A stretch of DNA of 64,000 bases, taken from a virus. Location: positions 9,025-73,024 of IMG/VR virus record IMGVR_UViG_3300045995_000345, one strand, 5' to 3'. This document shows, in pieces, positions 1,050 through 51,256 of the stretch; position 1 is the first letter of the stretch, and each line of letters opens with the position of its first letter. The position numbers and the translations under genes were made by a program. The notes under the pieces were generated by a model, which did not search any database, was not told the origin of the DNA, and saw nothing but the letters and a program-made list of their open reading frames with translations.

Positions 1050-1216
1050 TTGACAGAATTTAGATGCGTGTTTCATTGGAGACGTCCCGCAAATCAGGAC
1101 ACATCGACTAGACCCGATGAAACACACAACGACAGTTCCGAAATGCCAGCCAGCCGGGAGCAGCACGTCCTCGCTGTTCCGGTCTAGCGGTTGGCTGGCA
1201 TTTCAGAGTGGTCACC
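1050..1216 (+). promoter_or_regulatory. structured leader RNA, copy A (C4/CI antisense-like architecture)
   Basis: TTGACA at 1050; hairpin CATCG-ACTAGACC-CGATG at 1102-1119; 17-bp stem 1140-1156/1188-1204 with a bulge GGTCTAG (1181-1187) complementary to the loop; homologous to 46454-46617. Confidence 0.7.
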
Positions 1217-1897
1217 ATGAGTTCGAGATACGAGAAGAACTGCCCCATCTGCGGCAAGATCTTCGTAGTCGCACAAAATCTCTGCGCCTGTTCGCGTGAT
1301 TGCCGAAGACAGATGAACCAACGGTGGGCGAAGGCCAAGCTAGAGAAGCGACGACTCGCCACTCAGTCTCGGCAATCGGGCAGCCCATCAATCCAGACTT
1401 CCAGACCGTGCAAGAACTGCGGCCGCGACCGCAGGAAGAACAAGATCTTCTGCTGCGTATCCTGCTATGAATCGTTCCAGAAGAGGCCAAAGACTACGCA
1501 GGAACTGGCGGAGATAAAGCTCGCGAAGTCGGAGAAGTTCAGGCGCAAGCGGCAGGCCCGTGGTCAACGCGAGTTTGAGCTGAACCCCACCCGGTTCACC
1601 TACTACCACCACGTCTATCTAAACTCCGATCGGTGGGGGGAACTTCGGAAGCTCAAACTCCAAGAGCGCGATTGCTGCGCCAATTGCAGCAGCCGGACGA
1701 AGTTGCACGTCCATCACTGGGATTACCACAACCTGACCGATGTCCTCCTGATTGATCTGGAAGTCGTTTGCGAGCTGTGCCACAACGAGATTCACCGCCG
1801 GATCGACCGCTTTCCCAAGTCGGAGTGGACCAGATTGAGAGACCTGTTCAGGGAACTCGGAATGGACGGGCTTCCCATCAATCCGAAGCACCATTAG
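1217..1897 (+). CDS. HNH endonuclease with N-terminal Zn-ribbon motifs
   Basis: CPICG..CSRDC and CKNCG..CCVSC motifs; C-terminal CANC..LHVHHWDY..LEVVCELCHNEIH; alternative GTG start at 1208. Confidence 0.8.
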   Translation: MSSRYEKNCPICGKIFVVAQNLCACSRDCRRQMNQRWAKAKLEKRRLATQSRQSGSPSIQTSRPCKNCGRDRRKNKIFCCVSCYESFQKRPKTTQELAEIKLAKSEKFRRKRQARGQREFELNPTRFTYYHHVYLNSDRWGELRKLKLQERDCCANCSSRTKLHVHHWDYHNLTDVLLIDLEVVCELCHNEIHRRIDRFPKSEWTRLRDLFRELGMDGLPINPKHH

Positions 1898-1901
1898 AAA
1901 C

Positions 1902-2690
1902 TCAGTTTCCATCCTTGGGCAAATCAATTACAGCCGGCGCCGGCAGGTGACTCCTTCCATTTCCATTCGCCACCGTCACATTTCCGTCAACACGCATGTT
2001 GACCATTGGCGACAGCGGCGAGAACTTCGGGCTCCGTTTATTCTGGATCGCTTCCTTCTGCTCCGCGCGCCGCAACTCAATCATGGCTGCCGCGATTCCA
2101 GCCTGCCGGATCTTGTCGTAGGTATCGAGCATGAGGCCGTAGAGCGTGGCCCTGTCCTGCCTGAGCATCCTCAGCCTGACCAGCCTTTGGTCAAGGTTCT
2201 CTCCGGTCAGTGGATCCAAGGGTGCGGTATCGAGCAAGGCGATCCTCTCCGTTGTTGCCTTGGCTTCAGTCTGGAAACTCAGGTAGAGGGACAGGAGGCC
2301 ACCGCCAGTCATGGCGCCGATCTGCTTGAAGTGTTTGGCGAACAGGTCGGCTTGATTGATGGCGGTCTTGGCTACGTCTTCGGGAATTCCGATGGAGGTA
2401 AGAGCTTCTGCCGTCATGCAGACATTCTCCAAACGCTTCATTGAGGATTCAACGTCGCGAGCTAATGACGCTCCCGGATCTCTCGCATCCACCGCCGATG
2501 CTTTCTCAGCTCTGAGTTGATCGAAGACGGCCTTTAGCTTTGCGTTGTCCATGATCCGCAAGCGTAGCTTCTCCGGATTCCTTCCGAGCAATCTAGCCGC
2601 CCCCGCTATGGATCCAGACTGAAGCAAAGCCTCCCTTATCTGTAATTGCGTGGTTACTCTAGGAGCTTGCTCTGGTGTGGCGGTGTTCAT
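1902..2690 (-). CDS. Fis-type HTH/coiled-coil protein (regulator or displaced terminase small subunit)
   Basis: IREALLQSGSIAGAARLLGRNPEKLRLRI resembles an HTH; ATGA-coupled to the giant gene. Confidence 0.6.
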   Translation of the reverse strand: MNTATPEQAPRVTTQLQIREALLQSGSIAGAARLLGRNPEKLRLRIMDNAKLKAVFDQLRAEKASAVDARDPGASLARDVESSMKRLENVCMTAEALTSIGIPEDVAKTAINQADLFAKHFKQIGAMTGGGLLSLYLSFQTEAKATTERIALLDTAPLDPLTGENLDQRLVRLRMLRQDRATLYGLMLDTYDKIRQAGIAAAMIELRRAEQKEAIQNKRSPKFSPLSPMVNMRVDGNVTVANGNGRSHLPAPAVIDLPKDGN

Positions 2691-5600
2691 CTCCCAAACC
2701 CCGCAGCGATTGAACGGTAATCCCTTGCCCCACCACCGCCACCGGACATGGAGCTGGATCCGTAGATGTTCACGGCCCTGCGTTCTGTGCCGAAGAACGG
2801 GGTGAGCCCTCCCGTGTTGGCTCGGCTCTTTCGCACCTGCGCTCCGTAGGCGTTGAAGTTGCGGATGGCTGCCGACACTTCGGTTGCGCTGTCACCCAGA
2901 GAAGCCAGCATCTTCTGGTACTCGCCAGCGCTGGGGGACTTGTTGAACGTGGAGCGGAGAGGATTCATGCGCTCGTAAGCTTCAGCCACGTCTGCGTAGG
3001 GATCAACCTCCGGGTCAGTTACAGCCTTCAGGCTGGCGACTTCAAGGGCCTTGGAGTACGCCTCGCGGAATGCGGCCGGGTCGTTGACGTAGGCAGCCAG
3101 GACCATGTTTCCCACCCAAGGTTTCACCGGGTTGGGTATGGCGTTGATCATGCCGGCGGCTGAACCCCGGAAGATTCTCAGGTCAAGTCCCTGTTCCCTG
3201 CCGGCCACACGGATCAGGTTGCCCACGTTGATGCGTTCAACAATGCGGCGCTCGGTGTTGTCGAGGTCCAGCATGTTGTTGATCGCATCAAAGTTCTGGA
3301 GGTAACCAGTTCCACCAGCAGCCTGAATGAACTGGCGCCAGGTTGAAGCGTAGGTGGAATTCGACGGGCCTTGACGCGCCAGCTTGGTGAGCACAGCGCC
3401 AAGGTTCATGATGGTGGAGGCGACGAACACCCGGCTGTCCACGCTGAACTCTCGGGCAGTGGACACGTTGAAGATGGAGTTGACGGGTTCGCTGATGATT
3501 CCGAACGTGCCAAGGCGGGAGAACGAATCAAGCAGGGCGAGGGGCAGGTTCTCATCCAGCTTGAACGGAAGCTGGTTGGGCGCCTTGCCAACGATGTCCT
3601 TCTCGTACTCCTTGCGCATCACGGCGTAGGCGATGGTCACTGGAACGATGGCCAGGGTGAATGCTGTGGCGGCGGAAGCGGCTGCCCTCAAGGATGCTCT
3701 ACCCTCCGGCTCTCGCGAACTCTTCACCACGTCGGCGGTCTTGATCAGAGCCCAGCCAGTCAGGGGTGAGACAATGCGGCCGAAGGTATTGTTGAGCGTC
3801 CAAGGCGCACGCGTGGTGATGCCCGTGTTGAGCAGCACCTCGGTGTTCGCCAGCGCAATGACGGATCGAATCTGATCGAAGGTCAAAGGCTCCGCTCCAG
3901 AAAGTCGCTTTCTAGCAGCGTCCTCCAGTTGGATTCCGTTCTTCTCCAGCGTGGTGTAGAAGTACTTGAACGCCCGATCGTCCAGCATCAGCCCGCTCAG
4001 GTTCTTGCGCGAGAAGTTCGCCGTCTTGGCGCTGAACTTGAAGTTGGGATCCGCTGCATCTGCCGGGTGGTATTGGAAATAAAGGGCTGCCTTGTTGATC
4101 CCGTCGTTCGTGAACTCAAGCCACGTCCGAGCTGCGGCGCGCTGCATGATGATGTTGTTCATGGAGAACGGTGCCCACCACTTGAGGGTAGCGGCTGCCG
4201 TCTCAACGTTCTTCGGCTTGCCAACCCCAGTGCTCAGGAACACACGCGCTGCCGCGTTGACCCGCTTCGTTACGGCGCGCACCACTTCACCGGGCACCCT
4301 CAGCGGGGATGCCGTGCTTCTCCACGCCACAGCCCAGAGGGACGCCTCCGCTCCAAGCTGCTGCCGATAGCGGTCCAGCATACTTCTCCACCCACGGCGT
4401 TCGGTGAGCGAGTCAAGGTCCGCCGCCCCACCGCTGTTCAATAGGCGAGTGTTCTTGGCGTTCTCCGCGTTCATCCGCATCTCCCAGCTCATCGCCTGCC
4501 ACATGCTGTGCATCAACTCGAATGCGTAGTTCTTGTAGTACCCACCGAACAGGACGGACACCGCTTCCTTGCTGAACCCGAACTTCCGGAACGCATGGTC
4601 AGGCAGTGAGATGTGATCGGACACGGCGGAGGTGACGCCCTGCAGTACGAACCCGCTCATAACGCCAACCATGTCCATCAACGTCTGGTAACTCTGACCT
4701 CCGCCGCTGTGGGTGCGAATGAGTGAGAAGAGAACGTCCTCGTTCTTTTGGGCGTACTCGAGATTGTAAACGGCATTCTCGCGCATCTTCCTCAGTCCAG
4801 GCCGATCTCCATTCAGCCCGTTCTCCATGTAATCTTTCGACAGCGCTGGGTTGCTGGTCTTGATCGCCTCTGCCGCCTTGAAGTCATCCGCCAGCAGCGT
4901 CAGTTCAGTCTGGAGTTTCGCCAGGTTGGCCTTCAGGTCTGTGGCTCCAGCTCCGTAGGCATCCTGCTCTGCCAGGACGCGGATGTAGTTCGCGTAATCC
5001 TTGTGTCCGTAGGTTCGGAAGTTCAACCATCCAGGAGGGAAGTCCTCTCCCTTGCGCGCATCCAGGAAGGCGCGCCCAATCGTTCTCAAGTCGTTGCCCT
5101 GATCTCCTTCGTCCACCTTGGCGACCTTGTAGAGTTCGTCCATGTAATGTTGGAACGTGGCCATGGTCTGGCCTACGAAATCCGAGAGTGTATCGGGACT
5201 TCCACCAAGGTCAGCGTGCAGCGTCTCGGCAAACTTCAGGGCATCGAAGGTGCCATCGGCGCGACCAGCCGTGGCTGCTTGGTAGGCTCCCCTCAACTGC
5301 GCGTGCGGGGCCATGTCCACAACTCCGCCAACCTCCGGGCCTTTGAAGTTCGTTTGACCGGGCTTGGAAATCAGTTCGGCAACGAACGTCGTGTTGACTG
5401 GAGCGGTGAACCTCGCGTCCAGCACGGCCTGCAACGCTGCCCGATCCTTGGAGTGCAGCAATGCGACGGCGCTCTTGGTGAGGCCGACGTGTTCGACGGG
5501 GGTGGGATTGCCAGCATCGTCTGTCTCGGCTCCCATCCATGGAGTATTCCAGAACAGCTTCTCACTTCCCTTCATCCGCATCGCGAGAGCCACGGCTGGC

Positions 5601-8600
5601 CCTGCGGTGTAACGGCTCATGGTGCTCATCACGCCACCGATGACATCGCGGAAGATGACGCGCCCTCCAACCATGACATCGCGGATCTTGAGCTTTATCC
5701 CGCGTCGGACGTTCTGAAGATCCATCGCCGCCGCGAAGTTGGCACGGATGTACTTGTCCACCGCTTCCCATGCGCCCTTTCGCTCCATGCCTGGGAGCGC
5801 CTGCACGAACCTCTTTCCGGTCGCCATGAACTGGTCGAGCTGCTGCTCCGGAGTCAGCCTTGGATCGTAGAGGTGCTGCTCGGATTGGAACAGGCCGAGG
5901 ATGTTGTGGTAGAAGTTGGCGTGAAACTCAACAGGGTTGTCGATGCCGGTGGCGATCATTGCGGCACGGGCAAGTTCGTCCACCTTGTAGTAGAGCCGCT
6001 CGTTGATCGAGTTGCGAAGCGACTGCTCCCGGTTGTTGTGCGTCACGATCTGCTGCTCGATGGCGCGCGCTGTCTGCGTTCCGTGTTGCCGGAACCGCGT
6101 CCCGATGTCGCCCATGGAACGGAGGATCCAGCCGCCCAAGCCACGCTGAATATTCTCATTCGCGCTGTTCGCTTGACGCCCGGCAGCCTCTCTCACCACA
6201 CGTTCCAGAAAAGCGAATCTCCCTGATCCTTGAGATCCCGGGTGCTCCGCCATCCAGCTCACAATCTTCGTGAGATTCTGCTGAATATTCGCGTCGCTGT
6301 AGTTGTCGCCATGCTGAACCGTCTGGCGAAACTCAGGCTTCGTGAAAAGATCATCCTCAGTTGTCAGGTTGCTCTCGGGAACCAAGTAAACCGCGTTGTT
6401 CACCCACTTGAACTGCCGGCTTTGTTCTCCGAAGGTGCCTTCCTCCAGGTCGCGCATTCGTTCCAGCTTGCGAATCTCCTCAGCCTGAATCTTGGAAATG
6501 ATGTGCCACTCCACATCCCACTGCGAGAGTTGTGCCGCCTGCTTGAGCAGCTTCTCGTTCTCCGCCTTGATTGTGTCGAGGCGCTTTAGGATTCGGTCGG
6601 CGTGAACGAACAGGGTGCCCACGCGGGAGAGCTGGCCCACTGCAAGCGCCCGGGCATCCGGCTTGTTGCTGACCGCCAGTTTGATCATCTGGTTGATGGC
6701 GGTCTTCTGGACACCCTTGTCATCGTAGGCTGTCCGCACCGCCAGGAGATCCATCGCGATCGGCCGGCGTCGTGCGAACTGGAGAGCCAGGGCAAGGCGA
6801 GCTGGGTCGGCTGCGATGTTCCGAGCGTTCGGGTTGGCGCTGGCTGCCGCCGCTGCCTGCACGTCGCCTGGGGTCAGGGACACCTTGCCAGCGGATGTCA
6901 GTGAGACATTTCCCACGGTGGAGTAGTCGATGCCTAGCTCTGCTAGGGCTTGAAGCTGGTCGCCAAAGGCAATCTTGTTTCCCTCAATCGCTCCAGCCGC
7001 GATCCTCAGCGCTTCCTTGAAGCCAGTCTTAATGCCCAAGGCTTCAAGGATGGATTGCGCCCCGGTGCCAGTGGCCTCGCGCAAGGCGTCCTTCATGGAC
7101 TTCAGGAACTGGCCGGTCACCACGTCGAGGTTCTGGTAGTTCTGGGTCAGCTCGTAAAGCTCCAGGTTCGATTCGCTGATGCGCTCGGTGAGCTTGCCTT
7201 CGCCGAACTCATGATCGGAGAGTGCCTTGCGCGCCTGCCACCGGGTCCGGTCCTTGTAGTGAATCTCCAGGGCTGCCATCTGCGCCTTGGGCGCTTCGTT
7301 GGTCTGCTCCAGGTCTGCGAACGTGAGGCTGGTAGAAACTGGCTTTCCAGTGGTGCCGTCTTTGGTGAGCGCGCTGTTGATTGCGGCCTTGATGTCCTCG
7401 GCTGGATCTTCCCCGCCTTGAATAAGTGAGGCGAACGAGTTCTGAATCCACTCGGCCTCCGTGGCAACCGGCTTCCCTGTGGTGGTGACGTTGTTCCCGC
7501 TCTTAACGAGGGCGTCGAAGTACTTGGAACGTGCGGCGGCAACCTCATTCGTGACCGCCATCATTCGCTTGGCCTCGTTCTCGTACTCTCGCGTTGGGCT
7601 GATCTCTGTGCGTTCCCCGGCGAGGCCCTTGATCTGGCGGTAGCGCATCTCATCCGCATTCATCGGCCCCGTGTTGGGTCGCAAGACGCGCCACGCCTTG
7701 TCCCTCGCCGCCGCCGCTTCGTCGTAGTTCTGGAGCAACGTGGTGACCAGCTTGTAGGCTTCGTCCGCAACGTTCTTGTCGCTGGTCAGGCCAACTGCCT
7801 TGAGCAGGTTCGCCACCAGGCGCTTGAACGCATCCCACAAGGACAACGATGTCGGGTCACCGAAGTTCGGAGGCAGCGCAATCTTGGTGAGCTTGTCTCG
7901 AAACTCCGGGTCTGACAGCACGGCAACGGCGAACTCATCCGATCCAACCAGACCTTCCGCTGACTGCTGCCACGTCAGGCCCGCTGCCTTTGCGGCTTCA
8001 ACCAGTGTGTGCAATTTTTGCACGAACTCCTGTTCGCCAACTGTCAGCGATGCCGGGTTGTTCCTCGCACGCAAGAGCAGTCGCGAGATGAAAGGATGCA
8101 GCGCCTCGTGAACAACTGAGACATGGAAGTCCTCCACGTTCCGAGCGTTGGCTGGGAACACGGTGGCTTCATTGTTGGCCACGCTGTAAGATCCACCAAG
8201 CGGAGTCCCGACTTGAGTCTCTGGAGAGATTGTCAGCTTTGCCTCAGTGACATCCGCTCTTCCGGCAAGGAACTTGGCTAAGGCAGCCAGTTCCCCACCC
8301 GCCTCCGCCACCTTCTCCAAGGCAGCCGCCAGCGTCGGGTAATCCTTCTTCAACGCGGCGATGTTCATCTCGCTCAGCAACCCGTGCTGAGTGGCTGGCA
8401 GCTTGCTCTTGGCCAGTCGTTTGAGATTGAAGATGACGTTCTCCACGGAGTCGGGAAGAAGCTCCGGCGCCGTGATCGTCTGCGCATCCAGGTCAACGGC
8501 GTCCATCGCGTCTGGATCCAACTGGCGTTCGCGGGATGGCGTGACGGCTTCTTGAGCCACGTCCAGGGCGGTCTCGATTCCGTGCGGAGTCCTCGCCTTC

Positions 8601-11600
8601 GTGATCATGTCGAGGATCTGATCCCTCTGACCATCACTCAACCCGCCGTCTTCGTGCAGACTCAAGATGACGCCAACCGCCTCCGCCTTCAGCGGCACAA
8701 GGGCGCGCATCTTCTCCGACATCGCGTCTAGAGTTGCTACGGAGGTGGGGCTTGGTTCAAGTCTTGCACTTGTTCCGGTCTCACTTGGGGCTTGCGCGGG
8801 TTGCGCTGCTGCCGGCGGCGTGCCTTGGCCAACGCCTGCGACAATCCCACCATCAGCAGCATTATCCCGTTGCGAATTTCCGGTCGCGCCTTCTGCAATG
8901 GCGGAGGAACTTCCAGCATTTGTGTTCTCATTGGAAAGAGCCTTTCTAACTCCATTCCAGTTCGTGATGATGGTTGGCAGTGTTTCATCCAACATTCGCT
9001 GGATCATTGCCCGGTCTTCGATGGAGTCGTAGGAGGCCGCAACGCTTGCCTGAAGTTCTTTCGCGAACTGCTGAATCAACTCGGGCGACGTAACGACGTG
9101 GTCCTTTTGAAACGCCACGATCTGCGCCACCATCGGCATGTTGTTCTTCACCCAATCAGCAAACCTGAGTTGCTCCTTCCGGTTCAACGCCTGCTCTGGT
9201 GTGAAGTTCCTCGCGTTGACGATGTCTCCGGACGCCGTCCTCACGTTGTCGGTTGAGTATCCGTAGGCGTCATCCCTTGCCTGCTTCAGTCCACCGAACT
9301 CGCCCTCGTAATCAGCCACGCTGCGGATGGCTCGCGCAAGCTGGTTGCGTGGCGACCGCAAGAGCATGGACGAATACGGCACGAACCCAGCCTCCAGCAA
9401 ATCAATCACCCCAACTGTGTCCTTGGCCCCATCACCAATGGCGAATCGGAATTGCAGGTTGGCAATGACTTTGTTCGCGCGGAGCTTCTTGCTCACCGCG
9501 TTCACGTCGCCCTTGGTCTTCTTCAGCGCCTTTCCGAGTTCCGTCAGCGTGACTGTCTTGGGTGAAGACTTCAACGCCTTGGCCGCTTCCTTTTTCGTAA
9601 TACCGAAACCCGCCGCCGCCTCTTCCAGCGTGTAGGTGATCGCCCTGTTGCGGTTGTAGGCCAGCGAAAGAATGACGCGGCCGGCCGGGGTGATCCAACC
9701 AGCAACCCGTCGGCTCAACGAAGAGGACTGCTTGCCCACCGCAACCTGCTTGCCCTTCTCACTTCTCTTGGCTGTGCCCACCTGGGACTGGGCAGTGAGC
9801 AACGTGCCGATCAGCTTCGCGGCGTATTCCTTCTCGCCCTGAGTCTTGGCTTCGTTGTAGAGCTTGTGAGCTTCAGACAGATCGTGACCGCCACCAGTGT
9901 CGTCCTTCGTGTCGTAGTAACCCGGGAGCTTGGCGATCTTGCGAGCGGCCTCTTCGCTGTCCAAAGTAGCCTGCGCATCAGAGGATTCGTCAGGCGTCAT
10001 TCCTGGCTCGTCACCAGACGTCGGATCTTCCACGCGGCCGAATGCGTTTTCGACTGCGGTGGATCCAGAATCATCAACGAGCGAATCACCATGCCCGCGT
10101 TGAGACGGATCTTCCGAAGGCTTGGCTGCATCCAGAGAACCATACTCGAACTCCACCGCTGCCGGCCCGATGGCTTGAACGATGGATTGCTCCTCCGCTT
10201 TGAAGTTGGCAATGGCACGCTCCAGCTTTGAGATGCTCAGGATCAGATCAGCGTGTCGGTCAACGAGCGCCTCGGCGTCCTTGTCAGCCTTCTTCAGCTC
10301 GGCAATGAGCGATTCGACCTGCTTGAGTTCAGCCTGCTGGGCAGCCAAGTCGGTCTTGAGATACTCCAGGTTCTTCTTGCCATCGTAGTTCTCTCCGAGC
10401 GCATCGACCTTGGCAACGACGTTGGCGGCGAAACCGAGAGCTTCAGGCTTCAGTGCTTCTTCGACTTTGCGTACTTCTTTGCCCACGACGGGAGCTTGTC
10501 CTTTGACTTCACCTTGGACGGGAGCTTGCTGAACGACGGTGTTTCCTTGGCCCACCGCTTGGCCCACGGTTGGTGCGTTGAGAATGCGAACTTCTGTTGC
10601 GAGGTGCTGAGGAATGGGGGCATTGGATTCCTTGGTTGGTGCTGACTGGCTGCGCGCTTGGATCTTGGCAGCCATCTCGGCGGGCCTGGGTTGGCGAGAC
10701 TGACTGAGCCGCTGAATGCGTGCGGCCATATCCGCTGGGCGCGGAGCCTGCGTCTTGAAGTACGTCTTGAGCGCGGCAACTGCGGCCTTGGGAGTTTCGG
10801 GAGGAGAAGCCTGTTGAGCCTCCGATGGAGGCGGTGCTTCCTTGGTAGCGAGCGCTGCGGGTGCAGCCGGCACAACAGGTGAAGGCGATTGGGCAACCTC
10901 AGCGTTGCGCGTCACGGTCGGGTCACGCATGGCTTCAGCGTAAACCATCAGGTGCGCTTCAACGGGCGTGCCAGCCGGGATCATCTGCGTGTCCACGGGA
11001 ACGAACGTAGCGCCAGCCTTGACGAACAGTTCGAGCTTGTTGCCCCCGTCCTTCTGCGGCGTCACCACGGAACGGAACAGCACCTTGCCCGTGTCATCCT
11101 TGGCTTCGAGGATGCGTGGTGTCAGCGGAACTCCCAGCTTGCGCGATTCGGCCCACGTCAACTGTTGGTTCACGTTGCGCTGCTTCACCACATCAGGAAT
11201 CGAGGCTTCTGTCTTGGGATCATATCGAAGCCCCAGCTTGGCAGCCATCTGTTGCAGGTCGGCGCGCGTGAGCGTGTCCTTATTTAGCAGTTCGGCTACA
11301 TCGCGAACCTCCGGGCTTCTCTGGTCTTCGGGAACGGACTGAACCAGATCCTTCGCGAACTGGTAGAGCGGCACCTTGGAGACGGCGGGGCGTTCAGCTT
11401 CAGCCGTAGCCGAAACCCCACCCGCACCAGTTTCGCTGGGAACGCTGGCTGGTGCGGGCGTTGATGTCTCGGTAACCGGAGGTGCTACTTGCAACTCTTG
11501 GGTCCCTTGACCTTGGGCATTTGCTTCTTCGCCATTGGGAGTCTCACCGCCTTTCTCGTTGGAAAGTGACTTTCCAAGTTCGTCGCTTCTGGCTTGAAGG

Positions 11601-13087
11601 ATCCTGGTCCACTCCTGATTGAAGATTGCTTTCGAGTCTGAGTTGAGTTTCAGGATCTCAAGCTCGACGGCGGGGTCGCCGGCAGCCTTGCGCTGCACCA
11701 GTAATGCGATGCCGGCCCTGTCAACATCGTAGATGTCCTTGGCTACGTCGCTCCCAATCGTCCCGGTCTTCAGCGCGTCCGGCGGCGGAGGCGGTTCGTT
11801 CGTCGCCTCCTTCTTGGGCGGGGGCTGCTGCTCTCCACGCTTCTTGCCTGTGAACAGTTCGGTAACGGCGGACGTGGCGCCACCGCCCATGGTCCCGGCG
11901 ATACCAGAGTTGATGATGTCATCCTTCTCCGCCTGATTCAGTGGAGCCCAAAGCTTGCCCTCGTCATGGTCATGCAGGAAAGCTCCGTAACGCTGGCCGG
12001 CAACGTCAACAAGCGATTGGAACGCCTCAGTGCTCCCTTCCCATGGCACCGTCTTGGCGACCTCTGGGGCGAGGCGTGTGACGTAGGCGTAAAACGGCTT
12101 CTTCAGAGGTTCAACCGCCGCGTCTGTCAGCTCGCGGCCGGCCCTGCCCATTGCCTTGCCCAACCGTCCGACGATGTAGGTGGGCAGGACTGTATCGGGG
12201 ACCGCCTTTATGCCACCACCCACCAAGGCGATGTTGGCCGCGTCATCCTGGCTGAGTTCGCCCTTGTTCACCTGATCCTGCAACTCCATGAACAACTCGC
12301 CGGAGTTCTGCTGCATGGACGCAGCGGCACCACCCGTGAGGTTGCCGATCATCTGGCCGACCGTTGCCGCCTGGCGAACCGTTGCTGCCCGCAGGAGTTC
12401 CTTGGCCGGAGCGCTGAGTGCGTCCTTCAGGATCGTGCCAGCTGCGTACTTCTCGATCTCACCCTTCAGTTCAGCCGACACCTTCGCCTTCACCAGCGCC
12501 TTGAGGGCTCCACGTTCAAACAACCCAGCCGCCGCGCCCGGAATCCCGCCCACGCCAGCACCAGTCGCCGCACCAATGGCGGCGCCCGCACCCGCCGCAA
12601 CCACGGACTCACCAATCGACGGCACCAAGTTGCCAAACTGGTTGGCCGCATAGAGCATCGCCGTGCGCGGCCCGCTCACGTCACGCCAGTTGGCCACTGC
12701 CGGCTGGTAGTAATCCGCCGCCTCTTGCTGTTGCTCCGCTGCCTTGCCGATCAGGGTCTTGGCGATGTTAGTCGCGCCTAACTTCTGCGCCACCATGCCG
12801 CCTGCCCCGTAGGCAAGCGCCTGAGTCTGGTCAATGCCCGCACCCAGAGAACCCTTGAACTCCTGCCACGTTGACGTGTTGGCAATGCGGTCCTCCTTCT
12901 GGATTCGGTCCCAGTCAGCGGCGAAGTCCGGGTACTCCTTGAACACGTCCCTGCCTTGGGCGGAATACTCGGGGGCCTGAGCGGCGTAGAGCCGTGTGAT
13001 GTCGTCATCCTTGAGGGCCGACATGTCCTCCGGATTCCAACCCAAAGGGTTGTTCTTCCGAACGAAGTCAACGAGTTGGTTGGGCAT
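2687..13087 (-). CDS. giant (3466 aa) ejection/internal virion or polyvalent protein with a zincin-like HExxH motif
   Basis: Last of three Ala/Gln/Gly-rich helical proteins after the GNAT, in the podovirus ejection-protein position; VVHEALH at 8096-8110 followed by DEFAVAVLSDPEF. Confidence 0.75.
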   Translation of the reverse strand: MPNQLVDFVRKNNPLGWNPEDMSALKDDDITRLYAAQAPEYSAQGRDVFKEYPDFAADWDRIQKEDRIANTSTWQEFKGSLGAGIDQTQALAYGAGGMVAQKLGATNIAKTLIGKAAEQQQEAADYYQPAVANWRDVSGPRTAMLYAANQFGNLVPSIGESVVAAGAGAAIGAATGAGVGGIPGAAAGLFERGALKALVKAKVSAELKGEIEKYAAGTILKDALSAPAKELLRAATVRQAATVGQMIGNLTGGAAASMQQNSGELFMELQDQVNKGELSQDDAANIALVGGGIKAVPDTVLPTYIVGRLGKAMGRAGRELTDAAVEPLKKPFYAYVTRLAPEVAKTVPWEGSTEAFQSLVDVAGQRYGAFLHDHDEGKLWAPLNQAEKDDIINSGIAGTMGGGATSAVTELFTGKKRGEQQPPPKKEATNEPPPPPDALKTGTIGSDVAKDIYDVDRAGIALLVQRKAAGDPAVELEILKLNSDSKAIFNQEWTRILQARSDELGKSLSNEKGGETPNGEEANAQGQGTQELQVAPPVTETSTPAPASVPSETGAGGVSATAEAERPAVSKVPLYQFAKDLVQSVPEDQRSPEVRDVAELLNKDTLTRADLQQMAAKLGLRYDPKTEASIPDVVKQRNVNQQLTWAESRKLGVPLTPRILEAKDDTGKVLFRSVVTPQKDGGNKLELFVKAGATFVPVDTQMIPAGTPVEAHLMVYAEAMRDPTVTRNAEVAQSPSPVVPAAPAALATKEAPPPSEAQQASPPETPKAAVAALKTYFKTQAPRPADMAARIQRLSQSRQPRPAEMAAKIQARSQSAPTKESNAPIPQHLATEVRILNAPTVGQAVGQGNTVVQQAPVQGEVKGQAPVVGKEVRKVEEALKPEALGFAANVVAKVDALGENYDGKKNLEYLKTDLAAQQAELKQVESLIAELKKADKDAEALVDRHADLILSISKLERAIANFKAEEQSIVQAIGPAAVEFEYGSLDAAKPSEDPSQRGHGDSLVDDSGSTAVENAFGRVEDPTSGDEPGMTPDESSDAQATLDSEEAARKIAKLPGYYDTKDDTGGGHDLSEAHKLYNEAKTQGEKEYAAKLIGTLLTAQSQVGTAKRSEKGKQVAVGKQSSSLSRRVAGWITPAGRVILSLAYNRNRAITYTLEEAAAGFGITKKEAAKALKSSPKTVTLTELGKALKKTKGDVNAVSKKLRANKVIANLQFRFAIGDGAKDTVGVIDLLEAGFVPYSSMLLRSPRNQLARAIRSVADYEGEFGGLKQARDDAYGYSTDNVRTASGDIVNARNFTPEQALNRKEQLRFADWVKNNMPMVAQIVAFQKDHVVTSPELIQQFAKELQASVAASYDSIEDRAMIQRMLDETLPTIITNWNGVRKALSNENTNAGSSSAIAEGATGNSQRDNAADGGIVAGVGQGTPPAAAQPAQAPSETGTSARLEPSPTSVATLDAMSEKMRALVPLKAEAVGVILSLHEDGGLSDGQRDQILDMITKARTPHGIETALDVAQEAVTPSRERQLDPDAMDAVDLDAQTITAPELLPDSVENVIFNLKRLAKSKLPATQHGLLSEMNIAALKKDYPTLAAALEKVAEAGGELAALAKFLAGRADVTEAKLTISPETQVGTPLGGSYSVANNEATVFPANARNVEDFHVSVVHEALHPFISRLLLRARNNPASLTVGEQEFVQKLHTLVEAAKAAGLTWQQSAEGLVGSDEFAVAVLSDPEFRDKLTKIALPPNFGDPTSLSLWDAFKRLVANLLKAVGLTSDKNVADEAYKLVTTLLQNYDEAAAARDKAWRVLRPNTGPMNADEMRYRQIKGLAGERTEISPTREYENEAKRMMAVTNEVAAARSKYFDALVKSGNNVTTTGKPVATEAEWIQNSFASLIQGGEDPAEDIKAAINSALTKDGTTGKPVSTSLTFADLEQTNEAPKAQMAALEIHYKDRTRWQARKALSDHEFGEGKLTERISESNLELYELTQNYQNLDVVTGQFLKSMKDALREATGTGAQSILEALGIKTGFKEALRIAAGAIEGNKIAFGDQLQALAELGIDYSTVGNVSLTSAGKVSLTPGDVQAAAAASANPNARNIAADPARLALALQFARRRPIAMDLLAVRTAYDDKGVQKTAINQMIKLAVSNKPDARALAVGQLSRVGTLFVHADRILKRLDTIKAENEKLLKQAAQLSQWDVEWHIISKIQAEEIRKLERMRDLEEGTFGEQSRQFKWVNNAVYLVPESNLTTEDDLFTKPEFRQTVQHGDNYSDANIQQNLTKIVSWMAEHPGSQGSGRFAFLERVVREAAGRQANSANENIQRGLGGWILRSMGDIGTRFRQHGTQTARAIEQQIVTHNNREQSLRNSINERLYYKVDELARAAMIATGIDNPVEFHANFYHNILGLFQSEQHLYDPRLTPEQQLDQFMATGKRFVQALPGMERKGAWEAVDKYIRANFAAAMDLQNVRRGIKLKIRDVMVGGRVIFRDVIGGVMSTMSRYTAGPAVALAMRMKGSEKLFWNTPWMGAETDDAGNPTPVEHVGLTKSAVALLHSKDRAALQAVLDARFTAPVNTTFVAELISKPGQTNFKGPEVGGVVDMAPHAQLRGAYQAATAGRADGTFDALKFAETLHADLGGSPDTLSDFVGQTMATFQHYMDELYKVAKVDEGDQGNDLRTIGRAFLDARKGEDFPPGWLNFRTYGHKDYANYIRVLAEQDAYGAGATDLKANLAKLQTELTLLADDFKAAEAIKTSNPALSKDYMENGLNGDRPGLRKMRENAVYNLEYAQKNEDVLFSLIRTHSGGGQSYQTLMDMVGVMSGFVLQGVTSAVSDHISLPDHAFRKFGFSKEAVSVLFGGYYKNYAFELMHSMWQAMSWEMRMNAENAKNTRLLNSGGAADLDSLTERRGWRSMLDRYRQQLGAEASLWAVAWRSTASPLRVPGEVVRAVTKRVNAAARVFLSTGVGKPKNVETAAATLKWWAPFSMNNIIMQRAAARTWLEFTNDGINKAALYFQYHPADAADPNFKFSAKTANFSRKNLSGLMLDDRAFKYFYTTLEKNGIQLEDAARKRLSGAEPLTFDQIRSVIALANTEVLLNTGITTRAPWTLNNTFGRIVSPLTGWALIKTADVVKSSREPEGRASLRAAASAATAFTLAIVPVTIAYAVMRKEYEKDIVGKAPNQLPFKLDENLPLALLDSFSRLGTFGIISEPVNSIFNVSTAREFSVDSRVFVASTIMNLGAVLTKLARQGPSNSTYASTWRQFIQAAGGTGYLQNFDAINNMLDLDNTERRIVERINVGNLIRVAGREQGLDLRIFRGSAAGMINAIPNPVKPWVGNMVLAAYVNDPAAFREAYSKALEVASLKAVTDPEVDPYADVAEAYERMNPLRSTFNKSPSAGEYQKMLASLGDSATEVSAAIRNFNAYGAQVRKSRANTGGLTPFFGTERRAVNIYGSSSMSGGGGGARDYRSIAAGFGR

Positions 13088-35149: not shown

Positions 35150-35157
35150 TGTGCGGT

Positions 35158-35448
35158 CTAGCTCTTCTTCATCATTGCGGCCATGACTGCGGGCATTGCG
35201 CCTCCTTCGGAAGCCCCACTTTCTTCCGCCGTCATCGATTCCCCCATGGCTCCAGCCTCCTCTTCGGTCTCCGGCGGTTCCTCCATGATGCTGGCGCTTT
35301 CGACGGAGAAGACGGCTTGATCCCCGGCGACTTCGTCCAGGGAGGCTTCCACCTCGAATGTGGCCTTGTCGTTGGGGGCCAGTTTGGAGAGCTTTTCCTT
35401 CAGGTCCGGGTTGCCTGAGATCCCGAGAACGAGTTTGTTGGTGTTCAT
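35158..35448 (-). CDS. acidic hypothetical protein
   Basis: MNTNKLVLGISGNPDL... with a Glu-rich tail; the ORF track starts it at 35526. Confidence 0.55.
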   Translation of the reverse strand: MNTNKLVLGISGNPDLKEKLSKLAPNDKATFEVEASLDEVAGDQAVFSVESASIMEEPPETEEEAGAMGESMTAEESGASEGGAMPAVMAAMMKKS

Positions 35449-35544: not shown

Positions 35545-37119
35545 ATGCCCACCGACAAACTCACGGAAATCGAGATCGACACGTTCGCCTCGTTGGATGA
35601 AGTGGAGCAGGGCGATTGGAGGCGATCTCCGATCGATTACGAACCCGATCACAAGCCCCGACCCACCAAGACCGAGCCCTGGGAGCCGGACCTTAATCCA
35701 ACCCAGAAACTCGCTTTCGATGATCCCACCAAGTTCATCTTGATGGCTGGTGAGAAGTTCAGCGGAAAGTCGATCGGGGCGGAGCACAAACTGGTCCGGC
35801 ATTGTTACGAGAACTGGGACGCGCTTGGGTTGGTGTTCACGCCCTCAATCCGCACAGGAAAGTTTGGCGTGATGGCTGACCTTGAAACTCTGATCCTGCC
35901 ATCCTGGGAGGAGGGCATAGGATTGGAGTGGAAACCCAGCCGGCTGGATCCAAGCACCAAGGATAGGGTGATGAAAGTGGGCAACCGGTTCGGAGGTTGG
36001 TCCACGATCCTGCAAATCTCGATCCCCTACGAAGAGGCCATCGCCTCGCGCATCAAGGGCGTTGCGCCTTCCTTCATTTTGGGAGACGAGCTTACGGACT
36101 GCGATGGGCGCAAGTATTTCTCAACGATGGTGAGCCAGCTTGGCAGGCGGCGCAACATCACGGGACCTCAGCAATTCGTTGGGACGTGCAACCCCAAAGG
36201 CCCAAGCAACTGGGTTTACAAGGTCTGGTTTGAGGAACCGGTTGATCACGTCACAGGTGTTTCAAATCCTAATTTCAAGGTTTACCACGTTCCGTTCACT
36301 GAGAACTCCCACCGCCCGGAAGCCACCGAGTACATCGCGACCTTGCTGGAGGCGGTGAGGTACGACCCAATCGAGAAGGCGCGCCTGGTTGACGGCAAGT
36401 GGATCGAGATGCCCACTGGAGATTCTCTGTTCCGGGAACACTTCAAATCCACGGAGCATGTCGTTGGCAACTCAGCCTTGGGAACCGGCATTGTTCCCAA
36501 CCCAGCCTTCCCGTGTTACGTCGGCTACGACTTGGGGCAGGTTTACAGCGCGGCGGTGTTCCTTCAGCTTGTCCCCACAAATCAGGGTGACGTGTGGACC
36601 GTGTTCGACGAGATCGTTCACCTGCGGGAGAAGATCCTCTACAAGAACATGGCCAAAGAAGTGGTTGACCAGATGCTTCTCTGGAACAAGGCGCTTGGGC
36701 GAAACCTCGCCTGGGAACACATCGCGGACGATTCAGCCATCAACCAGTGGCGCCCGGGGTCTGGCTCTTACGATGCCTGGGAATTCGAGCGGGAGTTCAA
36801 CAAGGCCGCTCTGGTGCATGGGTTGCAAGAGATGCGTATGATTGGCTGCCCGAAGGGACCGGGGAGCGTTGGGGCTAGGACACGCATTGGCAAGGCTCTA
36901 CTGATGGCGGATCGCATCCTGATTTCGGACATCTGCGACCGGGTGAAGGACATGTTCCTGATGATCGAATCCGAGAAGGATGACCCAACCAAACCGAAGA
37001 AGACTGTCGCCGGCCACATCCATGTCTGGGACGCCCTGTCCTATCCACTGCTCAAGTATGAACTGAAAGGCGGAGCCTCAGTTGGCCCCGCCGTGCTTTC
37101 GTTCTCCCAAGGGAGATAG
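35545..37119 (+). CDS. terL: terminase large subunit
   Basis: Walker A GEKFSGKS, Walker B GDELTD, motif C GTCNP, nuclease GYDLG and HVWDALSY. Confidence 0.9.
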   Translation: MPTDKLTEIEIDTFASLDEVEQGDWRRSPIDYEPDHKPRPTKTEPWEPDLNPTQKLAFDDPTKFILMAGEKFSGKSIGAEHKLVRHCYENWDALGLVFTPSIRTGKFGVMADLETLILPSWEEGIGLEWKPSRLDPSTKDRVMKVGNRFGGWSTILQISIPYEEAIASRIKGVAPSFILGDELTDCDGRKYFSTMVSQLGRRRNITGPQQFVGTCNPKGPSNWVYKVWFEEPVDHVTGVSNPNFKVYHVPFTENSHRPEATEYIATLLEAVRYDPIEKARLVDGKWIEMPTGDSLFREHFKSTEHVVGNSALGTGIVPNPAFPCYVGYDLGQVYSAAVFLQLVPTNQGDVWTVFDEIVHLREKILYKNMAKEVVDQMLLWNKALGRNLAWEHIADDSAINQWRPGSGSYDAWEFEREFNKAALVHGLQEMRMIGCPKGPGSVGARTRIGKALLMADRILISDICDRVKDMFLMIESEKDDPTKPKKTVAGHIHVWDALSYPLLKYELKGGASVGPAVLSFSQGR

Positions 37120-45603: not shown

Positions 45604-46443
45604 ATGCGCTTCCTGCTCCCATTGATCCTGTGCTACAGCGCCAGCGCCGCTGACTTGATGGATGGCATCGTAAAGGTGGAGTCCGGGGGCAGGAACGGCG
45701 CCAGGGGAGACAAGGTCCACGGCGTTCCGCATTCACGCGGCAAGACCCAGATCCAGAAGGACGCGTGGAACGATGCCTGCAAGCGTCTGCATGTCAGGTG
45801 GCGCTGGGAAACGGACGCGCACGATCCAGCCAAGACCATGATCGTTTCACGCAACCACCTCGACTGGCTGCGAGTTCAGTTCAAGTCCGCGACCGGAAGA
45901 TCTCCCAGCGTTGCGGACGACTACGCACTCTGGAATCTGGGTTTCCAAGGGTACGCACGCCGGGGATTGCGCATTACGAATACCCCGAAGAGAACGCAGA
46001 GGGCTGCGTCTGAGATTTCTCCCACCGCGCTCCGGGTAACACCGACGGCAAGATTAGGGATGGCCGCAACTGCGCGGGAAGGCGCGGCCCCCAAACTCGT
46101 AACGGGTAAATGCGGTCGAACCATGACCAACAGCGAGGACAGAGGTGACAGCCGGGAAAGACCGGCAACCGTCCTACCCCTCCCGTCCGCCAACAACATC
46201 AAGGAGTCCGACCCAATCGGGGCGTTGGGGAACACAGACAACGCCATTCACAAACTCGGATCAAGGACGGGAGGCTCCCTTTCCCCCGCGCCCGCAGAGC
46301 TGGGATTTACTTCCAAACGTAAAACGCCCAGTGAAGCGAGCAAACCTGCCCAGCTTGTGCTGAAGCAGGGCGGGGCCACTTTCCATCCCGCGTTGGCGAC
46401 CAGCGAAACGGCCGACAAGGCGACAGTGCGGACCAGTCGCTAA
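45604..46443 (+). CDS. secreted lysozyme-fold (SLT/i-type-like) muramidase
   Basis: Signal peptide, VESGG..GD, G.TQI...W.DA and LWNLG; the last ~140 codons look non-protein-like. Confidence 0.65.
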   Translation: MRFLLPLILCYSASAADLMDGIVKVESGGRNGARGDKVHGVPHSRGKTQIQKDAWNDACKRLHVRWRWETDAHDPAKTMIVSRNHLDWLRVQFKSATGRSPSVADDYALWNLGFQGYARRGLRITNTPKRTQRAASEISPTALRVTPTARLGMAATAREGAAPKLVTGKCGRTMTNSEDRGDSRERPATVLPLPSANNIKESDPIGALGNTDNAIHKLGSRTGGSLSPAPAELGFTSKRKTPSEASKPAQLVLKQGGATFHPALATSETADKATVRTSR

Positions 46444-46453
46444 CGCGGGATGC

Positions 46454-46617
46454 TTGACTTCCTGAAATACTCAGTTACTCCTTGAGTGAGTCCGAAAGGA
46501 TTCACATCGACTCAACCCGGTGAAGACAGACACGACAATTCCGAACCTCCCACACGTTGGGGCAAGACGCCAGTCCTGCCCGGTTGAGCAGCGCGTGGGA
46601 GGTTCTGAGGTGTCACG
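46454..46617 (+). promoter_or_regulatory. structured leader RNA, copy B (C4/CI antisense-like architecture)
   Basis: TTGACT at 46454; CATCG-ACTCAACC-CGGTG at 46505-46522; stem 46543-46559/46589-46605 with bulge GGTTGAG at 46582-46588. Confidence 0.7.
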
Positions 46618-46806
46618 ATGAAGTTGATATTCAGCAAGCAGGAGATCGCGCAGGCGGTCGAAGTTTACTGGGGCGGCGAATTACTCAACGCGGCAGAGAA
46701 TTACACGGAGGGTGAGTGTGGTGTTTTTTACGACATGGAAACCGGGGAAATAACCGCTGAGATTGAGATCACCCAAAAGTCGTTGAGTGAAAGGAAGGCC
46801 GAATGA
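46618..46806 (+). CDS. small acidic hypothetical protein
   Basis: GAGGTG RBS; ATGA-coupled to the initiator. Confidence 0.6.
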   Translation: MKLIFSKQEIAQAVEVYWGGELLNAAENYTEGECGVFYDMETGEITAEIEITQKSLSERKAE

Positions 46807-47705
46807 GCGCCCCCGCTTCCTTCCCGTTCTACCCCGACGACTTCCTGGCCGGAACCATGGAGATGTCCACTGATGAGGTTGGAGCCTACATCCGGCTCCT
46901 CTCTCACCAATGGAACCGCGGTTCAATTCCGGTTCAAACCGAAAAGCAACAACGGTTGGCTGGGGGCTCAGTCTCGGCCGACGTAATTTCCAAGTTTGAG
47001 GTGTGTGAAGACGGCCTTCTCCGGAACGCGAGGATGGAGTTTGAGCGAGAGAAGCAATGTAAGTATCGTGATGCTCAAGCACTTAAGGGTCGCCTTAGTG
47101 GCCAGGCAAGGCGAACCCCGGTTGAACCCCGGTTGAACCCCGGTTCAGTTTTGGTTGGAACCCAATCGAACCCCCCCGTCCCCGTCCCCGTCCCCGTCCC
47201 AATTGTACAAATACCCAGCAAGCCGGGCGGTGGAGTTTCGGAATTACCGAAAGACGCAGAAGACATCGAGGCTCAGATCGACCAGCTCTACTCCGCCTAC
47301 CCGAAGCACGTCGGCGTAGCGAATGCGAAGAGGGCGATTCGGAAGGCATTGAAAAAGGCGACGTTTGAAGTCCTCTTCGAAGCCGTCACTGCCTTTGCAG
47401 TTTCCCAGGCCAGTAGGTCGGCGGAGACGAAGAAGTTCATTCCCGACCCGGCGACGTGGTTCAACGCGGAACGTTGGACAGACGACCGCACCACATGGAC
47501 GGTTGGGCAGAACGGCTCCACGGTCCCGCCCCACAAGCAGCTTGACGCGGTCAAGCTCTCGATCGAGACGCACCCCGCGAACCGGGAGTATGTCGGCTAC
47601 GACGAACGGAAGGTCACGCCAGAGTTGAAGACCCAGCTCTCCGACCTTCGGAAGGCGGCAGAGCAGTTGACGCTTCGGATCGCGAAAGGATCCATCCATG
47701 GGTAA
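46803..47705 (+). CDS. DUF1376/YdaU-like replication initiator
   Basis: FPFYPDDFLAGT..MS..EVGAYIRLL..QW..G; C-terminal YPKHVG..FIPDPATWFNAERWTD. Confidence 0.85.
   Translation: MSAPASFPFYPDDFLAGTMEMSTDEVGAYIRLLSHQWNRGSIPVQTEKQQRLAGGSVSADVISKFEVCEDGLLRNARMEFEREKQCKYRDAQALKGRLSGQARRTPVEPRLNPGSVLVGTQSNPPVPVPVPVPIVQIPSKPGGGVSELPKDAEDIEAQIDQLYSAYPKHVGVANAKRAIRKALKKATFEVLFEAVTAFAVSQASRSAETKKFIPDPATWFNAERWTDDRTTWTVGQNGSTVPPHKQLDAVKLSIETHPANREYVGYDERKVTPELKTQLSDLRKAAEQLTLRIAKGSIHG
47113..47145. repeat. iterons (GAACCCCGGTT x3), putative replication origin
   Basis: Three exact 11-bp tandem repeats inside the initiator gene. Confidence 0.7.
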
Positions 47706-50782: not shown

Positions 50783-51256
50783 ATGAAGACACCGGGACAG
50801 ATCAACTTCGAGGCGTTCCATAAAAGGCCGGAGCCGCCGAATTATTATACCGATTCGCAGTACTCTCAGAGGGACTGGGAGCGCGCTGCCCAGGCCGTCA
50901 TCAAGGACTACGAACAGCGCCAGTCCCAGATCACCAGCGGGGGCATCGTGAAGCCTACGACGCCACTCTCGCTCGGACCAGAAGTCGGAAGATGCTCGGA
51001 GTGCCATCGATGCACATGGGCTCGTAGCGATCTTGGAACTCCATGCGGAATGACACAACCAGATGGATCGCGATGCTTGGGAGTATTTGGAGAAGCCGTA
51101 TTTGTTTCCGAATCGACTCAACCCTGCATCACCGGAAACTGCATCCAGGCCGGCGGCTACCCCAATGCCACCATCACCATGGACGCTGACATCACCCAGA
51201 TCCAGAACTTCCCATCCAACCTGCTCTTCAAGCGGGTCAAACTCACACTCGAATGA
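50783..51256 (+). CDS. hypothetical protein with a Zn-ribbon
   Basis: KTPGQINFEAF..WERAAQAV; CSEC..CGM..C. Confidence 0.55.
   Translation: MKTPGQINFEAFHKRPEPPNYYTDSQYSQRDWERAAQAVIKDYEQRQSQITSGGIVKPTTPLSLGPEVGRCSECHRCTWARSDLGTPCGMTQPDGSRCLGVFGEAVFVSESTQPCITGNCIQAGGYPNATITMDADITQIQNFPSNLLFKRVKLTLE

Follow-up and report, generated by a model that had tools for sequence, protein, structure and literature searches.

What is the function of two leader RNAs that share one fold while their stem sequences differ, and that stand ahead of unrelated genes in the same phage genome? The question is raised by a 64,000-nucleotide stretch of DNA (the window; positions 9025-73024 of the 73,024-bp IMG/VR record IMGVR_UViG_3300045995_000345, 58% G+C), in which such leaders occupy positions 1050-1216 (copy A, ahead of a gene for an HNH-like protein) and 46454-46617 (copy B, ahead of a replication operon) of the plus strand. 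They belong to a new RNA family, whose mode of action most probably resembles a type of control already known, a more general conclusion than that of an earlier note on this DNA, which had likened copy A to the C4 and CI immunity RNAs. The mechanism we favor, with somewhat more confidence than doubt, is cis-acting translational control: a long hairpin (P3) would hide the Shine-Dalgarno (SD) sequence and start codon of the downstream gene, translation of a short leader open reading frame (ORF) would open P3, and a kiss between the loop of an upstream hairpin (P2) and a bulge in P3 would tune the process.

Two covarying leaders in one phage genome

Every element of the layout that the earlier note had read from the two leaders is present in both. 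In copy A, TTGAC (1050-1054), possibly the -35 element of a putative promoter, lies ~30 nt before the hairpin P1 (1084-1100; GUCC-CGCAAAUCA-GGAC), which is followed by P2 (1102-1119), whose CAUCG/CGAUG stem closes an 8-nt loop at 1107-1114 (ACUAGACC; ACTAGACC in DNA) with a U-turn-like UNR, UAG, at loop positions 3-5. An A/C-rich linker that contains ACGACAGUUCCGAA (DNA positions 1129-1142 read ACGACAGTTCCGAA) leads into P3 (1131-1213), which consists of two short base helices (GAC/GUC and UUC/GAG), a 17-bp stem (1140-1156/1188-1204), an inner hairpin (1157-1180), and a 7-nt bulge on the 3′ side, GGUCUAG (1181-1187), the exact complement of loop bases 1108-1114 (CUAGACC). The UUC/GAG base helix pairs an SD-like GAGUGG (1206-1211), and the leader closes with TTCAGAG..GTCACC before the ATG of the gene at 1217. 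Copy B repeats this arrangement: its TTGAC (46454-46458) is at the same distance from P1, P1 (GUGAGUCC-GAAA-GGAUUCAC) and then P2 fill 46486-46522, and P2 itself (CAUCG/CGGUG, 46505-46522) has the loop ACUCAACC, in which CUCAACC (46511-46517) is again an exact 7-nt complement of a bulge, GGUUGAG (46582-46588), in P3 (46534-46614). Here too the SD-like sequence, GAGGUG (46607-46612), is paired at the base of P3, and the ATG of the next gene is at 46618. A hairpin at the P1 position, with a sequence different from that of copy A, is thus present in copy B, and it is also found in the group-2 relatives described below.

These structures were obtained as minimum free energy (MFE) folds, and those of both copies give the long stem, the inner hairpin, and the 7-nt bulge, with z = -6.0 for copy A and -4.7 for copy B; none of 200 shuffles folded as well. 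In both folds UUC pairs with the GAG of the SD-like sequence, and 3-4 nt separate the end of P3 from the AUG. A scan of the window for the 22-nt P2 pattern gives exactly two matches, copies A and B, where the expected number is 0, and no third leader copy was found in the genome. When the two copies are aligned, standard pairs fill 97.6% of the pair cells, as against 31-42% when the partners are slid by one to three columns, and 10 pairs are changed on both sides: seven in the long stem, one in the inner hairpin, and two in the loop-bulge helix. The observation in the earlier note that the stems differ and the pairing is kept is thereby borne out. From the two copies alone the evidence for loop-bulge pairing is thin, with only two positions compensated (a chance of about 1 in 16); the pairing is settled because relatives of the leaders keep the complementarity, which is under selection.

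A near-perfect duplex of 17-20 bp with an asymmetric bulge would also suit RNase III, for which sites are known in phage T7 and in the lambda N leader. P3 might accordingly be a processing site at which cleavage separates or activates the downstream message, the bulge and its partner positioning or blocking the cut. We regard this as quite improbable, since it leaves unexplained the conserved leader ORF, the ATGA start context, and the covarying loop partner, as well as the asymmetry between the two strands.

Two further observations concern the words and stems themselves. The copy A bulge with its flanks (CGGTCTAGC) recurs at 35154-35162, and the copy B loop with its flanks (GACTCAACCC) at 51115-51124; both extra copies fall within coding regions or at their ends and are probably matches by chance. 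Over 46350-46850, the contigs of four DNA runs differ at a single position, a C>A change at 46551 in one contig (run X5, depth 4.3), which would break a C-G pair of the 17-bp stem of copy B and may be an error.

A leader family at the head of phage replication operons

Relatives were gathered through the replication protein encoded after copy B, which yielded 16 GTDB loci and 80 metagenome loci. Two models were used: R1, built from copies A and B only, and R2, built from 21 well-aligned leaders that we call group 1 (alignment A7, 20 distinct rows). R1 matched loci L044, L084/L086, L028, L048, and L102, in each case directly before the replication gene and on the same strand as that gene. When it was run without filters, 10 of 13 chosen loci were matched just upstream of the replication gene and on its strand, at E-values from 5.5e-5 to 0.18. 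At E ≤ 1.5e-3, R2 matched 43 of the metagenome loci, a number that includes the 21 of its own seed. Together with 11 loci of the R1 type and three read by eye (L075, L076, and L045), the leader is found in 57 of the 80 metagenome loci. Among the 16 GTDB loci it was found in L004 only, which comes from a metagenome-assembled genome (MAG) labelled Rubrivivax and is matched by R2 at E = 0.019. In further loci the same architecture was recognized by reading the sequences by eye, with bulges located from MFE folds; strict descriptor scans caught 12 and 20 of 88 loci and missed group 1, whose P2 loop is closed by a 2-bp stem followed by an internal loop. The window copies are linked to group 1 by a chain, in which R1 reaches group-2 leaders of the L043/L088 type and R2 reaches L004, and by the common architecture.

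The leader family thus normally stands at the head of the replication operon of freshwater phages, ahead of a DUF1376/YdaU-type initiator and DnaB. With that as its usual home, copy B is a typical member of the family and copy A the odd one. The family is widespread in freshwater phages and apparently undescribed: a narrow search of the literature on DUF1376 proteins and pseudoknots gave no description of it, and supplementary files of RNA-motif surveys might list it. The earlier note had missed this usual home, as it had the leader ORF that runs across P3 and the overlap of its stop codon with the gene start.

Several searches aimed at closer or wider relatives gave nothing. Exact-pattern scans built from copies A and B had no matches in IMG/VR or in the JGI metagenomes, blastn of both leader regions against GenBank phages had none, and close relatives of the phage were found neither among GenBank phages nor in IMG/VR. 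In IMG/VR scans based on proteins, the HNH-like protein gave no loci, the replication protein one distant locus (L002), and DnaB two loci with 31-32% identity. R1 found nothing significant in the five MAGs that carry L004-L007 and L018 (best E 0.35), and a search with R2 of 151 genomes from the order of G001 gave no matches and was uninformative, G001 itself being unmatched.

The loop-bulge pairing and its alleles

Across the subgroups, complementarity of loop and bulge is kept with at least 15 different sequences, and the loss of complementarity in homologues, which the earlier note had named as grounds for abandoning its reading, is not seen. Besides the words of copies A and B, the pairs (loop/bulge) are UGAGAC/GUCUCA in L044, UAGCAC/GUGCUA in L048 and L022, AACAAC/GUUGUU in L084, UGAUCC/GGAUCA in L102, GUAGCGU/ACGCUAC in L004 and L043, GUCGCAU/AUGCGAC in L088 and L096, UUGCAC/GUGCAA in L036, and CUAGACAU/AUGUCUAG in L087. 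Group 1 adds GUGAGAA/UUCUCAC, CUAGGAA/UUCCUAG, GUAGGAA/UUCCUAC, UGAGAG/CUCUCA, and GUAAGAG/CUCUUAC, and L028 keeps five of six pairs. In the 20 distinct group-1 leaders of A7 the pseudoknot helix is 97.9% paired, with four of its seven pairs changed on both sides, and the structure as a whole is 93.1% paired, as against 38-47% with slid partners. The pairing was also approached from the other side: the bulge was taken from the MFE fold alone, and its complement was sought in the 150 nt upstream, in 40 distinct leaders and 1,200 random windows. A complement of at least 7 nt was present in 22 of the 40 leaders and 3.7% of the random windows, and one of at least 6 nt in 29 of the 40 leaders and 13% of the random windows. 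The covarying loop partner sits 70-100 nt upstream of the bulge.

In DNA, the words of loop and bulge amount to an inverted repeat, which usually adjoins replication genes, and the leader might thus be a DNA-level element, such as an origin, a single-strand initiation signal, or inverted repeats bound by a protein, and have no role as RNA. Base-pair usage speaks against this. Paired cells hold 27 G.U and 7 A.C combinations in A7 (6 and 2 in alignment A4), and the excess of G.U identifies the gene strand as the one that folds. Nor would the sites of one binding protein be expected to vary between copies and relatives and yet stay complementary, and the leader ORF and the ATGA context make sense only as RNA, while copy A lies beside an HNH-like gene and not a replication gene. 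We therefore consider a DNA-level element highly improbable.

A UNR that marks the 5′ limit of the pairing bases is present at loop position 2 or 3 in the 12 loops that a script closed correctly and, as judged by eye, in the other loops read. UNR is the U-turn signature of loops that serve fast RNA-RNA recognition, as in antisense RNAs. The words themselves behave as discrete alleles. L063 and L064 are 94.6% identical outside the pseudoknot and differ at 6 of its 14 bases, all of them compensated; L049 and L050, with backbones 90.6% identical, show the same switch of loop and bulge as a block, and L026 is another example in A7. Conversely, an identical allele is also found on backbones that are only 45-50% identical.

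Switching of this kind between a few alleles would suit a trans-acting immunity or incompatibility RNA, in which the leader, or a processed P1-P2 or P3 piece of it, accumulates, kisses leaders of the same type, and turns off the replication operon only in phages of that type, whether co-resident or incoming. The reuse of one allele on diverged backbones fits such a role, as do the U-turn-type loops, which resemble those of fast antisense RNAs; the position in the leader of replication genes, as in P4 CI; and the difference between the words of copies A and B within one phage, which leaves central mismatches when the two are cross-paired. Weighing on the other side, both partners lie in one molecule, where intramolecular pairing should win; no second target was found, the other copies of the words in the genome falling in coding DNA; and there is no match to a C4 family. 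The leader's neighbors, too, are co-directional genes of DNA metabolism, with no repressor or immunity region near it in the seven loci checked, and no integrase or repressor was recognized among the ORFs of the window, most of which match no family. On this balance we hold a trans-acting RNA to be unlikely. It is similarly doubtful that the 6-8 nt word is a determinant of specificity in trans, so that incompatibility or superinfection exclusion at the replication operon would be exerted by RNA only, free of protein, through a handful of circulating alleles exchanged or re-evolved as blocks. Were it so, one phage could run two orthogonal channels, one at the HNH-like gene through copy A and one at replication through copy B.

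Some variation around the pairing elements was noted in group 1. In A7, an extra difference opposite the bulge, GUGAC versus GUGUUAC, is linked to the allele. A tandem G-A/A-G mismatch, two pairs down from the loop, is conserved in the P2 stem of group 1 (e.g., L031 2335-2362; CAGCGCGAGC...GCGAGCGUUG) and might form a structured motif or be bound by a protein.

A leader reading frame that meets the start of the gene

Each leader contains a short reading frame that would carry ribosomes across P3. Its start codon, AUG or GUG, lies in the 3′ strand of P2 (copies A and B and L102) or within ~25 nt after it, and the frame then crosses all of P3. It is open in 34 of 34 members, the other two frames in 15 and 18 of them, and the downstream gene begins with ATGA in 34 of 34. 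The position of the leader stop, taken as that of its first base relative to the A of the gene's AUG, was listed for 35 members. It is +1, which gives AUGA, in 18 of them, including copy B; -6 in eight; and -4 and +5 in one each, and hence within 6 nt of the gene start in 28 of 35. The leader peptides are not conserved between groups, and among close relatives the frame varies through small indels, so that, if the frame is used, it would be its translation that matters and not its product. For annotation, leader ORFs and ATGA-coupled starts would correct the gene calls in such phages.

The leader ORF of copy B has 33 codons (46520-46621) and a GUG start in the 3′ strand of P2, spans the whole of P3, and ends in a UGA that overlaps the AUG at 46618 as AUGA. 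Behind it lies an operon (46618-49125, plus strand) in which Pfam and PHROG matches identify a replication protein of the DUF1376/primosomal type and a DnaB helicase: a 62-aa ORF (46618-46806) is followed by the replication protein (46803-47705), with a DUF1376/YdaU N terminus and the PHROG annotation "primosomal/replication initiation protein," and by DnaB (47698-49125). The 62-aa ORF and the replication protein share an ATGA at 46803-46806, and the reading frame of DnaB overlaps that of the replication protein by 8 nt; judged from these overlaps, the whole operon may be translationally coupled to the leader ORF. An arrangement like that of copy B, in which 170-900 nt and at least one small ORF separate the leader from the replication gene downstream, is seen in L034, L035, L038, L041, L046, L052, L055, L065, L067, L068, L088, and L096.

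In copy A the leader ORF has 60 codons (1117-1299), starts at an ATG in the 3′ strand of P2 (1117-1119), and likewise crosses P3. The inner hairpin of copy A is 2 nt longer than that of copy B, and the frame of the leader ORF is changed as a result. The gene that follows (1217-1897, plus strand) starts in the context ATGA and encodes 226 aa with a Cys-rich N terminus and an HNH-like C terminus. The HNH nuclease that the earlier note had placed here is supported weakly, by PHROG family phrog_119 at E = 3.6e-5, and the product has no Pfam match.

The 3′ ends of the leaders and the putative promoter

The members divide into two types at their 3′ ends. Copies A and B, L044, L048, L084, L028, L087, and L095 have an SD-like sequence of the GGAG/GAGG type. 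Part of this sequence pairs at the base of P3, opposite a 5′ strand that is CCUCC- or UUCC-like. The other type, found in ~24 of 34 relatives, is without an SD and has a U-rich tract right after P3.

The U-rich type suggests a transcription attenuator, in which P3 is an intrinsic terminator, a leader-ORF ribosome following closely behind the polymerase gives read-through, and contact of loop and bulge speeds or stabilizes the terminator. In these ~24 relatives the U-rich run comes straight after the G-rich 3′ strand of P3 (GGGGUUUUUG, GGGGUUUCUGUUUG, GGCGGGUCUUUUUUGG), and the leader ORF covers the whole hairpin, as such a device would need. The eight members of the SD type, however, lack the U run, and no terminator was called on the plus strand at copy A or B, where U makes up ~4 of the 10 bases that follow the 17-bp stem; the U-rich run could just as well assist initiation without an SD. 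Attenuation, which suits the U-tract members and not copies A and B, is in our view unlikely.

TTGAC(A/T) is conserved ~30 nt before P1 in copies A and B, L004, L088, L044, and L048. A reading of L004 and L088 as promoters of the form TTGACA-17-TAATAT was rejected, as the spacers are actually 14 nt and neither was called. No promoter-like site was found on the minus strand at A or B in a scan for the sigma-70 consensus only, and an antisense promoter opposite the linker is not indicated in group 1, where no conserved -10 was seen by eye.

A model for cis-acting translational control

How these parts could work together is suggested by their order. With P3 folded, the SD-like sequence would be buried in a hairpin that ends a few bases before the AUG, and ribosomes could not start on the gene alone. 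The leader ORF, beginning in or beside P2, would be read through the entire P3 and end at the gene start (AUGA in copy B and most relatives), and ribosomes translating it would melt P3 and reinitiate on the gene where stop meets start. Since P3 would be opened by leader-ORF ribosomes, the output of the gene would follow initiation on the leader ORF, and the ease of that initiation would be set by a pairing of 6-8 bp between the U-turn-type P2 loop and the bulge on the 3′ side of P3. The kiss can form on folded P3 because both of its partners are unpaired in that state, and it would stabilize P2 and tie the linker along P3. The direction that we prefer is that of a lock, which would restrict initiation on the leader ORF to the interval before P3 has folded; alternatively, the pseudoknot might aid restart, as it does in the I-complex plasmids discussed below. 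In copy A, which retains all of the RNA features but has lost the overlap of stop and start, the leader ORF could act only by unfolding P3.

Several points weigh against this model. The leader ORF of copy A overruns the start of its gene by 80 nt in another frame and has no stop at the ATGA, and in six further members of the 35 listed the stop also lies away from the gene start, at +23 in four, at +53 in one, and at -20 in one. The count of open frames is inflated by relatedness; over ~10 independent group-2 lineages the leader frame is open in 10 of 10 and the other two in 2 and 4. The U-rich tract that ~24 of the relatives have in place of an SD fits termination of transcription equally well. 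A consensus scan called no canonical sigma-70 promoter at copy A, copy B, L004, or L088. The bulge stays unpaired when the hairpin folds and is 30-36 nt away from the start codon, whereas the distal bases of the plasmid systems sit inside a stem beside the ribosome-binding site, so the role of the pseudoknot may differ from that in the plasmids. R2 fails to reach copies A and B, and no single model joins the window copies to group 1. Finally, what is shown is the structure, the covariation of P3 and of the loop-bulge helix, the open leader frame, the ATGA context, and the position relative to genes, whereas translation of the leader ORF, its coupling to the gene, the direction in which the pseudoknot acts, and the promoter are predictions made from sequence.

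Genome context

The genes upstream of the leader are co-directional with it and encode varied proteins of DNA metabolism: RecT, a PD-(D/E)XK exonuclease, and an unknown protein in the window, and a methyltransferase, a phosphoesterase, an exonuclease, and a glucosyltransferase elsewhere. In L084 (1922-2085; also in L086), a second leader-like element lies ~400 nt upstream of the R1-type leader and is scored weakly by R2 (E = 0.22); its G-rich hairpin is followed by UUUCCUUCUU and ATGA before an ORF of ~75 aa. Tandem leaders within one phage may be common.

Most ORFs of the window have no Pfam or PHROG match. An ORF of 3,466 aa on the minus strand (2687-13087) and four more large ORFs on the structural side are without a Pfam family at E ≤ 0.001, and the only signal found was a marginal one for terminase at 35545-37119. 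The ends of the IMG/VR record (~190 bases each, the last of them also the last bases of the window) repeat each other with a few mismatches near the very end, as would be seen with a terminal repeat or if the assembly were circularly permuted.

Comparison with known regulatory systems

With Rfam 15, no family, C4, c4-2, and c4-a1b1 included, reached its gathering score in the window or the 16 related loci, and scans of both copies at E-values up to 10 returned only chance matches of the miRNA and snoRNA type, with none to a C4-type family or to a family for plasmid copy control. The kinship with C4 and CI that the earlier note had seen in copy A therefore finds no backing in these models. In the C4/CI layout, one RNA pairs with targets upstream and downstream, the downstream one at the ribosome-binding site (RBS) or leader of the controlled gene. 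Each leader described here has one loop and one partner, the additional copies of the words at 35154 and 51115 lying in coding sequence, and this layout too does not apply. P1/P7 C4, P4 CI, and N15 CA resemble the leader in being structured leader RNAs of early or replication operons, in having a short loop complementary to a site in the same leader, and in the covariation of loop and target that gives distinct specificities; they are unlike it in that its single partner is the bulge of a hairpin and not an RBS, and in that a predicted leader ORF is part of the design. Of the immunity or attenuation switch that the earlier note had proposed, the regulatory switch ahead of a gene remains sensible, and processing and action in trans are unsupported.

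A working analogy for a lock that limits initiation to the first moments after synthesis is offered by RNA phage MS2, in which, through the pairing between coat and replicase sequences and in the maturation leader, a hidden start is exposed by ribosomes from the upstream frame or is accessible before a long-range pairing forms. The sequences and genomes are unrelated, and the comparison goes no further.

Coupling of an initiator gene to an overlapping leader-peptide ORF is described for plasmid R1 (IncFII), with tap/repA and CopA, and for IncI2, with repR/repA (PMC8053102). The authors report that they found no pseudoknot like that of IncI1 in IncI2 (PMC8053102). R1 and IncI2 depend on antisense RNA, and IncI2 also on a ProQ/FinO protein, whereas in the leader the pseudoknot is the best-supported element and no antisense RNA was seen.

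The closest known logic, by analogy, would be the pseudoknot control of repY/repZ in the I-complex plasmids rather than P1 C4 or P4 CI. The plasmid side of this comparison is the replication control of the I-complex (repY/repZ of IncI1 ColIb-P9 and repB/repA of IncB/O pMU720) and of IncL/M (PMC8053102, PMC10724649); in IncI1 and IncB/O, coupling to a leader peptide is combined with a pseudoknot that translation of RepZ requires (PMC8053102). Three features are alike. The end of the leader ORF meets the start of the initiator gene in copy B and most relatives, although not in copy A; a stem-loop sequesters the start or RBS of the controlled gene, in both copies; and the loop of an upstream hairpin forms a pseudoknot with a distal site, which in the leader is supported by covariation and in the plasmids is needed for translation of the initiator. 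In the plasmids, the bases of the loop also decide specificity.

Other features differ. There is no similarity of sequence or model, so that descent is unsupported; the carriers are phages and not plasmids, and the initiator belongs to the DUF1376 family. The leader presents the distal partner in a 3′ bulge that is exposed and lies 20-37 nt ahead of the start, whereas in the plasmids this partner consists of bases inside a stem next to the RBS. Unlike in the I-complex, no antisense RNA gene was found, by the sigma-70 consensus scan at copies A and B and by eye in group 1, and copy A departs further in being followed, without overlap, by an HNH-like gene. If the favored mechanism is correct, phages of uncultured freshwater bacteria control a replication-initiator operon in a way thought typical of I-complex and IncL/M plasmids, and do so with an RNA family that is unrelated to the plasmid leaders, absent from Rfam 15, and accompanied by no visible antisense gene. 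A family this common, with clean covariation and discrete loop and bulge alleles, would offer a compact natural set of orthogonal RNA-RNA switches, and it makes testable whether the replication modules of phages fall into incompatibility types as those of plasmids do.

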